Source: a virus
Lineage: Duplodnaviria > Caudoviricetes
DNA: 64,000 nucleotides
IMG/VR virus record: IMGVR_UViG_3300021514_000002
Location: 96,001 to 160,000 of that record
Reading direction: 5' to 3' (one strand)
A program made the position numbers and the translations under genes. How positions within the stretch are numbered: position 1 is the stretch's first letter; each line of letters begins with the position of its first letter. This document shows positions 10,085 through 12,982 of this stretch, one piece after another. A model generated the notes under the pieces. That model saw nothing but the letters and a program-made list of their open reading frames with translations, did no database searches and was not told the DNA's origin.

Positions 10085-10632
10085 TCATTCTTCTTCCATT
10101 AATAGTTTCAGGTTTTTTAGCGTTCTTTCTTCAAGTTGGCGAATTCGTTCCATAGAAACCCCATACTTTTCAGAAAGATCTTTTAATGTGAGGGGAATAT
10201 CTATGAATTTCCGCCAGTGATTTGCATTTTTCGTAAATTGAAAAATAGCTTACGTTGTGGTTTTGTAGTAGCAACTTTTGATATCTTCCAATTATTCACA
10301 ACATATTCATATATTTCAGCCTTAATATAATGGACGGCATATGAAGTCAATTTTCCTTTATCTGGCTCAAACCGATGAACAGCTTTCATTAAACCAACGT
10401 TACCTTCTTGGATTAAATCTTCCAATGGTAAACCATAGTTTACGTATTTTTTAGCAATATAGACGACAAATCGTAAATGCGCTAAGACCATTTTCTGTGC
10501 TGCATCTAAGTCGTCATTATATATAAGACGATTCGCAAGTTCAACTTCTTCTTCCCTTGTCAACATAGGAATTTGTCCCAATGACGCCAAATAAGAACTT
10601 AAATTTCCTGTCGTGGTTAATCCTGTATTCAT
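10085..10632 (-). pseudogene. rpoH: RpoH (sigma32)-derived gene: regions 1.2-2.4 plus RpoH box, then a region 4.2 HTH in the -1 frame; region 3/4.1 absent
   Basis: [23 protein letters not shown] and [16 protein letters not shown] precede TAG at 10203-10201. The -1 frame reads LTLKDLSEKYGVSMERIRQLEERTLKNLK, with TGA at 10087-10085. Confidence 0.8.
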
Positions 10633-11101
10633 TTAATCCTCAACTAATCGATGTTGTATTACAAATTCACTACCAAAAGAAGTGACAAATTGCAATACAT
10701 TGGGTTTTTCGACGCGAATCGCACCATATTGCACATCAAATCCACAACTAAAGTCTTCGCCTATGATTGCGAAGTATGCAGAATCGTTGCCATTGGGTTC
10801 AAGTGTTATGTCTGTAATACGTGTTGAGGTTGTTTCATCCAAATCAATTTCGGTGAGTATTCCGCCAATCCACTTGCTTTTATTATCAATAAATCCATTC
10901 CACATTGGATATGTTTTGCCGTTTATTTCTTTCATTTGTTCTACCTATTAATTTCAAAGTCAAAATATACAGTATTCTGACCTATATGTCAAGTCTAACA
11001 TGCCTTTGTGTTAGAACTCTTGACATAGCGTTTGGTTTCTGTTAGGGTAATAAAGTTAGTAAAATATATTGTAACATTATCACAACATAAGGTATAAACA
11101 A

Positions 11102-11635
11102 ATGACTAAAAAGAAAGATATTAAATGGAAATACATGAAGTTAGACGGTGCATTAAACCGTAACTATAAAGTTTCAGATCAAGGCGACATCGTTGCTTCT
11201 ACAACAATGAAACCATTAACCCAGAGCGACATGGGTAAAAAATGTGCAAAGAATGGCACAGATTACAAGAGTGTAAGTATTGTAGGCCGTAAAAATGGAG
11301 TTCGAGTTCACCGTATCGTGTGTGAAACTTTCCGTGGTGCTCCAAAGGGCGATAGAACCCAAGTTGGCCATCTTGACGAACACAAAGATAACAACGCGTT
11401 ATCTAATCTAAAATGGATTTCGCCAACAGAACGCTCCCGCGCTTATTTCGCCAACAACACCCTACCACGTTACACAACCGCTGTTGTTGTCCGTACTAAA
11501 AAGATGATCAACAAAGGTTTAACAAACGATAAAATTGCCCAAAAAACAGGCATGAGCGATTCTAACGTATCTGCGATTAAATTAGGCATCATCCATTCAG
11601 AAGTTAAACCATATACATCAAACCAGTTCGGTTAA
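11102..11635 (+). CDS. HNH endonuclease-like protein with C-terminal HTH
   Basis: VHRIVCETF...VGHLDEHKDNNALSNLKW motif. Confidence 0.75.
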   Translation: MTKKKDIKWKYMKLDGALNRNYKVSDQGDIVASTTMKPLTQSDMGKKCAKNGTDYKSVSIVGRKNGVRVHRIVCETFRGAPKGDRTQVGHLDEHKDNNALSNLKWISPTERSRAYFANNTLPRYTTAVVVRTKKMINKGLTNDKIAQKTGMSDSNVSAIKLGIIHSEVKPYTSNQFG

Positions 11636-11965
11636 TATGTTAGCATCGAAAGAAGAATACAAGGATTTGTTAGAAGAAACTAAGGACAAGGATTTGTCCG
11701 CTTTGGATGATACGGTTAAAAATACTGTTTCCAATATCATTTCCCGCGCACGAGAAAGGCGCAGCGATGGCAAGGAAATTTCCGATCCTTTATTGAATAC
11801 ATTAATTGAACAGTTGAGTAAAACAGTTAGGAATCGTAATAACCTTGAACATTTTCTTGAAAGTATCGCATGGTATGAAGAATATACTAGAAATAGGTAA
11901 TTAAAAGCTTGCATTTTACAAATATTTAGGTTACAATGGTGTATATTTGATAATTAGGATATTTT

Positions 11966-12982
11966 ATGAAACTTTTAACACACATCGGACTCATCTTACT
12001 GTTACTATGTAATGTAGCAACTGCCGAAGAATTTTCAATTGGTATTAAAGAAGCTAAACCCCTTGCTTATCAGGAAAACGGACAATGGAAAGGTATTAGT
12101 GTTGATTTAATTCAAGAACTTTCCAAAGAAATGAATTTTACTTATAAGTTCGTTTCCGTTAATAACATTACATCTTTAATAGATGCATCATCTAATGGTG
12201 CTGTTGATATGTCAATCGCTGCAATATCATTAACCCCTGAACGCGAAGAAGTTATTGATTTCTCGCACAAATACTTTACCACATCCATTGGTATCCTATC
12301 GAATGTAAATGATTCTTGGATAGACACTATATTATGGGTAATATCAAGGGTTGCATTAATTTTAATCGGATTTATTATCTCACTTTATGTAGTAGGCTAT
12401 ATCATTGATAAGGTTGATGGTAATGCCAATATTAAATCGCCACATGATGGTGCATGGTGGGCATTAGTAACTTTTACTACAACAGGGTATGGTGATGTTG
12501 TTCCGAAGACGAGCGCAGGTAAAGTCCTTGCGTCCATTTGGATGATAGCCAGTTTATTTTTATTATCAGCGTTTACAGGTTACGTGGCATCGGTTTTAAC
12601 TGTTAAAAATTTAACTGATACGCCAATGACACTTTCCACTCTATATAACGCTAACGTAGTTGCCGTTAACGGCTCTACTGGCCAACAGCGACTAAATGCT
12701 CTTGGTATTAAACACATTACGGTACCTGATCTTGAAATGGGATTAGAATTATTTAAATCTGGCAAAGTAAATGCCGTAGTACATGATGATACTATGTTAA
12801 ATTATGCAGCAAAATCAATGGATAATGTTCTAGTATCGTCTATCGCTAATAGCGAAGAAGATTATGCAATTACATTACCACCAAATTCCAAGTTGACACG
12901 CCGTGTTAATTTAGGTATACTACGCGTTCTTGCTTCCCCTACGTGGAAAGCGATTCGTTCACAATATAACGTCCTACAATAG
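11966..12982 (+). CDS. GluR0-like ligand-gated potassium channel (SBP lobe-TM-pore-TM-SBP lobe)
   Basis: Signal peptide, SBP family 3 features (GISVDL, VDMSIAAISLTPERE..IDFS..Y), WWALVTFTTTGYGD K+ filter, and a second SBP lobe. Confidence 0.85.
   Translation: MKLLTHIGLILLLLCNVATAEEFSIGIKEAKPLAYQENGQWKGISVDLIQELSKEMNFTYKFVSVNNITSLIDASSNGAVDMSIAAISLTPEREEVIDFSHKYFTTSIGILSNVNDSWIDTILWVISRVALILIGFIISLYVVGYIIDKVDGNANIKSPHDGAWWALVTFTTTGYGDVVPKTSAGKVLASIWMIASLFLLSAFTGYVASVLTVKNLTDTPMTLSTLYNANVVAVNGSTGQQRLNALGIKHITVPDLEMGLELFKSGKVNAVVHDDTMLNYAAKSMDNVLVSSIANSEEDYAITLPPNSKLTRRVNLGILRVLASPTWKAIRSQYNVLQ

Follow-up and report, generated by a model that had tools for sequence, protein, structure and literature searches.

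The locus described here carries an RpoH (sigma32)-like sigma factor gene whose coding information is divided between two reading frames, in the 363-kb genome of a phage from a deep-sea vent. The window, i.e. the whole stretch of 64,000 nt that was analyzed, corresponds to bases 96001-160000 of a virus record of 363,531 bp that is rated complete. The whole stretch was present in one sequencing run only, a hydrothermal-vent metagenome, and megablast of window 9000-12000 gave no match among GenBank phages. The features of the locus are listed in Table 1.

Table 1. Features at the disrupted sigma factor gene (window coordinates)
Feature	Position	Strand	Description
Downstream ORF, 84 aa	9834..10088	-	Synteny anchor; its ATG and the original sigma stop overlap as ATGA
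-1-frame remnant of the original 3' end	10085..10213	-	Last region 4.1 residues, region 4.2 helix-turn-helix, original TGA
Deletion junction, 9-10-nt microhomology (G)CGGAAATTC	10205..10214	-	Flanking homologies overlap here
Truncated sigma ORF, 143 aa	10201..10632	-	Regions 1.2 and 2.1-2.4, RpoH box, first 8 residues past the box
Upstream ORF, 100 aa	10633..10935	-	Synteny anchor; equal length and position beside the intact gene on the 122-kb contig of a relative

Organization of the locus

The ATG of the truncated sigma ORF directly follows the TAA of the preceding 100-aa ORF, and a GAGGA Shine-Dalgarno sequence is located upstream of it. Its product matches Pfam Sigma70_r1_2 at residues 11-35 (3e-8) and Sigma70_r2 at residues 48-115 (3e-19). 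An RpoH box, Q(R/K)(K/R)LFFNLR, lies just after region 2.4 at residues 126-135, where it is aligned with the same motif in Salmonella RpoH. The ORF stops 8 codons past this box (..MQITGGNS*), as had been stated in the original prediction, which was made from the letters of this DNA.

The open stretch of the -1 frame, 10249 to 10085, gives a Pfam Sigma70_r4 match of 2e-8 restricted to the second half of the domain (profile positions 20-49 of 50), and the remnant matches TIGR02392 at profile positions 230-269 of 270. The remnant ends in a TGA (10087-10085) that overlaps the ATG (10088-10086) of the next ORF, and it lacks a separate start codon upstream of the helix-turn-helix. Both the RpoH-like region 4.2 helix-turn-helix and the overlapping TGA had been predicted, and the arithmetic by which one extra base would give a 182-aa protein also holds (548 + 1 = 549 nt). 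Region 3 together with a complete region 4 (4.1 + 4.2) was not found in one reading frame in the window; region 4.2 stands in the -1 frame.

No second sigma32-like gene was found in the 363-kb genome. Outside the window (G000:C1:58643-58768, locus L008), a 121-aa open frame matched Sigma70_r2 weakly (17 bits, E 1.5e-3), and this frame may encode a divergent second sigma-like phage protein, e.g. a late-gene sigma.

Intact relatives and synteny

A first homologue search, at lengths near 143 aa, returned only fragments of bacterial RpoH, and the 143-aa ORF is 60-66% identical to gammaproteobacterial RpoH. Restriction of the search to longer proteins revealed intact phage relatives. These are P0121 (276 aa, 93% identity to the 143-aa ORF), P0122 (276 aa, 89%), P0124 (284 aa, 67%), and P0125 (278 aa, 65%). 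P0121 and P0122 cover 100% of the 143-aa ORF, and each of the four covers 99-100% of it and then runs through regions 3-4. A comparison of homologues in related phages had been proposed along with the original prediction, and all four proved to be uninterrupted, at 276-284 aa. In the alignment, the 143-aa ORF represents residues 1-143 of an intact 276-aa phage RpoH-like sigma, and the remnant represents residues 235-276 of P0121. Against NF005143, the NCBIfam model of the sigma-32 subfamily, P0121 scores 329.2 bits and passes the cut-off of 241.

In a quick tree, which is provisional and contains long branches, the four intact phage proteins group together in a clade separate from 116 bacterial RpoH sequences (SH-aLRT 100). 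Searches of IMG/VR with the 143-aa ORF yielded no relative, and searches of JGI metagenome contigs yielded just one, at 34% identity. When the alignment of the four intact proteins was used to search IMG/VR, only generic sigma-70-family genes were retrieved (28-48% identity).

On the 122-kb contig that encodes P0122, the gene order is 100-aa ORF, 276-aa sigma, 84-aa ORF (with a 4-nt overlap), and 198-aa Dam methylase. On the other side, this contig carries HNH, 338-aa K+ channel, and DUF2491 genes, the same as the window. The neighboring genes are equal in length between contig and window, and the sigma gene alone differs. P0124, encoded on a 17-kb contig, lies in the same gene neighborhood. 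The window locus (10085-10632) and its relatives at L005:185-1015 and L006:6001-6855 thereby outline a very large marine/vent phage lineage, in which an RpoH-like sigma slot is fixed beside an HNH, K+ channel, and DUF2491/PspA-like cassette.

A 283-nt deletion between short repeats

DNA alignment of the window with L005, the 1028-nt contig encoding P0121, gave two colinear blocks separated by one clean gap of 283 nt. Counted from its ATG through its TGA, the gene has 831 nt in L005 and 548 nt in the window. The missing 283 nt comprise P0121 codons 144-234 plus 1 nt. As 283 is not a multiple of three (283 = 3x94+1), the remnant lies in the -1 frame, and translation in the zero frame runs into a TAG one codon past the repeat described below. 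The end of the zero frame (..TGGNS) aligns with ..STIGNS-TEEE in the relative, and this tail is, judged by that alignment, genuine coding sequence and not a frameshift read-out.

Ungapped homology on the 5' side reaches window position 10205, and on the 3' side it begins at 10214, so that the two sides overlap by (G)CGGAAATTC. In L005, CGGAAATTC occupies gene bases 420-428, right after the RpoH box, and CGGAAATTT occupies gene bases 703-711 in region 4.1, 283 nt from the first copy. The window keeps a single repeat copy, CGGAAATTC, at 10213-10205; the other copy and the interval are gone. Two copies in the intact form, one copy in the derived form, and a lost interval are what a deletion between short direct repeats leaves behind, and all three were found here.

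Measured against Salmonella RpoH, the ORF comprises residues 1-149 and the remnant residues 243-284, with residues 150-242 lost, i.e. region 3 and most of region 4.1. The predicted absence of about 100 aa from region 3/4.1 is thus a real loss, now refined to a deletion of 283 nt relative to intact relatives. It also accounts for the scores of the window ORF: with residues about 150-242 missing and the C-terminus in another frame, the ORF falls below the NF005143 family cut-off (210.5 bits under 241, over profile positions 11-143 of 285). With TIGR02392, it reaches 198.6 bits, the cut-off being 323.1.

Taken together, the locus at 10085-10632 is very probably an allele that a recent deletion has made from a full-length RpoH (sigma32)-like sigma gene encoded by the phage. 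The form of the junction suggests that replication slippage or microhomology-mediated recombination between the two 9-10-nt repeat copies removed the 283 nt. With these 283 nt, the gene lost the coding sequence of region 3 and of most of region 4.1 (sigma32 residues about 150-242), and the frame change is a by-product that left the region 4.2 helix-turn-helix stranded in the -1 frame.

Selection and age of the deletion

The part of the gene upstream of the junction is 94.2% identical to L005 at the nucleotide level, with dN/dS of 0.13-0.17 and dS of 0.17-0.18. For the remnant, nucleotide identity to L005 is 92.2%, dN/dS is 0.25, and dS is 0.21, with 5 synonymous and 5 non-synonymous differences. 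The neighboring upstream ORF is more divergent (82% nucleotide identity, dN/dS 0.30, dS 0.50). No stop codon was found in the remnant frame. The dN/dS of 0.25 and the absence of an in-frame stop indicate purifying selection on the remnant for nearly all of the divergence time, and thus a recent deletion. In the protein alignment, inspected by eye, the window lineage carries no more private substitutions than P0122.

According to the original prediction, a simple pseudogene would be recognized by full-length RpoH in relatives and by relaxed selection on this copy. Relatives do carry a full-length RpoH-like gene. As for relaxed selection, the remnant gave the dN/dS and the 5 vs 5 differences stated above, and on these few differences from one sample the deletion is, as far as substitution patterns tell, too recent for a signal of relaxed selection.

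Alternative explanations

The split gene could have been produced by sequencing, amplification, or assembly, either as a false deletion or as a 1-nt homopolymer error, the gene being intact in the real phage. The junction is indeed known from one sample only, its 24-mer is absent from other IMG/VR contigs, and the two assemblies that contain it derive from the same reads. The deletion receives independent support from a marine sediment metagenome (X2) and a marine metagenome (X3), in which contigs from relatives of about 90% identity depart from the window at this place. A 604-nt X3 contig follows the window from 10551 to 10225, after which its next 277 nt are different, and a 190-nt X2 contig does so from 10251 to 10205, with 143 nt of different sequence beyond. 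From the other side, an X3 contig matches the region 4.2 part up to 10214, and by our own reading its onward letters encode SDRDHDIVLS in the 4.2 frame, which is region-4.1-like (P0121 has ADRDRDIVLS there). In the probable source run (X1), an independent Logan contig of 22.4 kb (depth 17.8) agrees with the window at every base of 9800-10950, showing 0 differences and 0 gaps, and no contig or loose end of X1 diverges at 10205-10225. The gap is 283 nt and not 1 nt, and a repeat of 9-10 nt should be too short to collapse in k-mer assemblers with k of 21 or more. An artefact is therefore very unlikely, and the proposal of a homopolymer error in the A5 run is refuted by a repeat-bounded deletion of 283 nt that was reproduced in an independent assembly. 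The source-run comparison concerns contigs and not raw reads, and the sample may hold a minority full-length allele.

The two remaining possibilities give the split gene a function. By one of them, a programmed -1 ribosomal frameshift or transcriptional slippage in the overlap 10249-10201 would yield a 182-aa mini-sigma of the form sigma2-linker-sigma4.2. In favor of this reading, no stop codon interrupts the -1 frame within the overlap, the frame closes at the original stop that is coupled to the next gene, and the overlap contains an A5 run and a T5 run. Yet when the overlap was read codon by codon in the zero frame (..CTA TTT TTC AAT TTA CGA AAA ATG CAA ATC ACT GGC GGA AAT TCA TAG), no X XXY YYZ heptamer was found, and it holds half-sites only, in CGA AAA ATG (A AAA ATG) and CTA TTT TTC (A TTT TTC). 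The fold of 10232-10140 (93 nt) has -17.5 kcal/mol and z = -1.1, and 29/200 shuffles fold as well, pseudoknots being outside this test. Runs of A5 and T5 are too short for efficient transcriptional slippage, and the A5 run does not occur in L005 (CGG AAA), the sole relative whose DNA was compared. The two-frame layout is not conserved, as P0121, P0122, P0124, and P0125 are encoded by single uninterrupted ORFs; it is fully explained by the 283-nt deletion; and the 182-aa product would still be without region 3 and half of the sigma4 domain. We regard recoding, for which neither the missing heptamer, the z of -1.1, nor the one-ORF relatives offer any support, as having almost no chance of being correct.

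By the other possibility, the 143-aa fragment was selected as a decoy or dominant-negative, acting on core RNA polymerase or on DnaK/DnaJ/FtsH control of host sigma32 and so retuning the heat-shock response. Such a variant, if real, would manipulate the host heat-shock response differently from relatives with an intact sigma. The ORF retains its Shine-Dalgarno sequence, its start, intact regions 1.2-2.4, and the RpoH box, and there is no excess of amino-acid changes in the window lineage vs P0121/P0122. Region 2 is the main core-binding module of sigma factors, and T4 gp55 is a precedent for a sigma2-only protein that is able to function. Against this, the form arises by an out-of-frame microhomology deletion seen in a single sample, and the full gene is kept in at least four relatives, one of them at 93% identity. 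The region 4.2 remnant is almost intact, which points to a very recent event with no time for a test by selection. Beyond the retained features, nothing favors the proposed decoy, and with the allele known from one sample only we consider it improbable. The evidence, namely intact full-length relatives and a 283-nt deletion, favors the decayed gene that the original prediction had listed among its options.

Comparison with known systems

The window gene shares regions 1.2 and 2, the RpoH box, and the C-terminal helix-turn-helix with bacterial RpoH/sigma32 (NF005143; TIGR02392 rpoH_proteo), e.g. RpoH of Salmonella enterica (L089:683-1534). It differs in being phage-encoded, in the deletion of residues about 150-242, and in its out-of-frame C-terminus. 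Even the intact phage relatives score just under the strict proteobacterial equivalog cut-off of TIGR02392 (312.5 bits for P0121, below 323.1) and form a clade of their own. The closest counterparts are the intact RpoH-like sigmas of uncultured marine/vent phages, which are the same gene and, for P0122 and P0124, stand in the same slot with the same neighbors. Among cultured phages, the giant Salicola phage SCTP-2 encodes a full-length 282-aa RpoH homologue, gp39 (‘RNAP sigma-32 factor-like protein’), that is 42% identical. The gp39 gene, like those of P0121, P0122, P0124, and P0125 (276-284 aa), is uninterrupted, whereas 283 nt are absent from the window copy, which is frameshifted. A literature search on phage-encoded RpoH found nothing directly relevant.

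Phage T4 gp55, a minimal sigma with a region-2-like domain only, resembles the 143-aa product in that both are sigma2-only proteins from large phages. The likeness is one of design, at the level of the sigma-70 superfamily. T4 gp55 acts together with gp33 and the sliding clamp, whereas there is no hint of similar partners for the window fragment, whose form is an accident of deletion and not a conserved architecture. Deletions at microhomologies or short repeats are known to make pseudogenes in phages and bacteria, with the same one-copy junction, lost interval, and length that is not a multiple of three. Nothing is unusual about the present case by this comparison, in which the mechanism is read from the junction.

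A 143-aa RpoH fragment of equal length (P0066) was considered as a candidate relative and rejected: it belongs to an enterobacterial rpoH with an in-frame stop and is unrelated, the shared length being a coincidence. That gene (L090:1556-2413, on a contig of JGI metagenome 3300005316) lies downstream of ftsX and has a single in-frame stop at codon 144. Gene calling therefore split it into ORFs of 143 aa and 139 aa, and the product of the first represents 62 member sequences. This may be a nonsense (amber-type) allele, from either a laboratory or a natural strain.

Functional consequences

Without region 3/4, the product would make no -35 recognition or beta-flap contact, and for this reason we infer that sigma function has been lost in the window phage. 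The 143-aa sigma2 fragment, if made, would be at best a by-product. As the truncated ORF keeps its RBS and start, a stable fragment of sigma2 and RpoH box may still be produced and may have some activity; it could bind core polymerase via region 2, although nothing points to selection for such binding. On the window allele, ribosomes translating the sigma ORF terminate 112 nt before the 84-aa ORF. The lost stop-start coupling may have a polar effect, by which expression of the 84-aa ORF and of the Dam gene behind it would be altered.

In the relatives, the intact protein would guide the RNA polymerase of the host to promoters of the heat-shock type. A search of the 363-kb genome for the strict sigma32 promoter pattern TTGAAA-N12-16-CCCCAT gave 0 matches, the pattern being very strict and the test correspondingly weak. 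Because this consensus is absent from the phage genome, host chaperone genes would be the most likely targets. If active, the intact sigma of the relatives is likely to act on promoters of the host, or else its specificity has shifted.

The type of event and the gene family are both already known, and the locus is a textbook case of a gene-inactivating deletion in an accessory phage gene. Positions 10085-10632 should accordingly be annotated as a disrupted rpoH-like gene, and not as a mini-sigma or a recoding site. Loss of this accessory sigma gene appears to be tolerated by the phage, and the natural deletion allele suggests that the gene can be dispensed with, at least for a short time. Should these phages be brought into culture, the allele would provide a natural ‘knock-out’ genotype for comparison. 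The more interesting object is the conserved full-length RpoH clade of giant marine/vent phages: a fast-evolving, full-length sigma32 homologue kept in a fixed slot of very large phage genomes suggests control of the host chaperone regulon.
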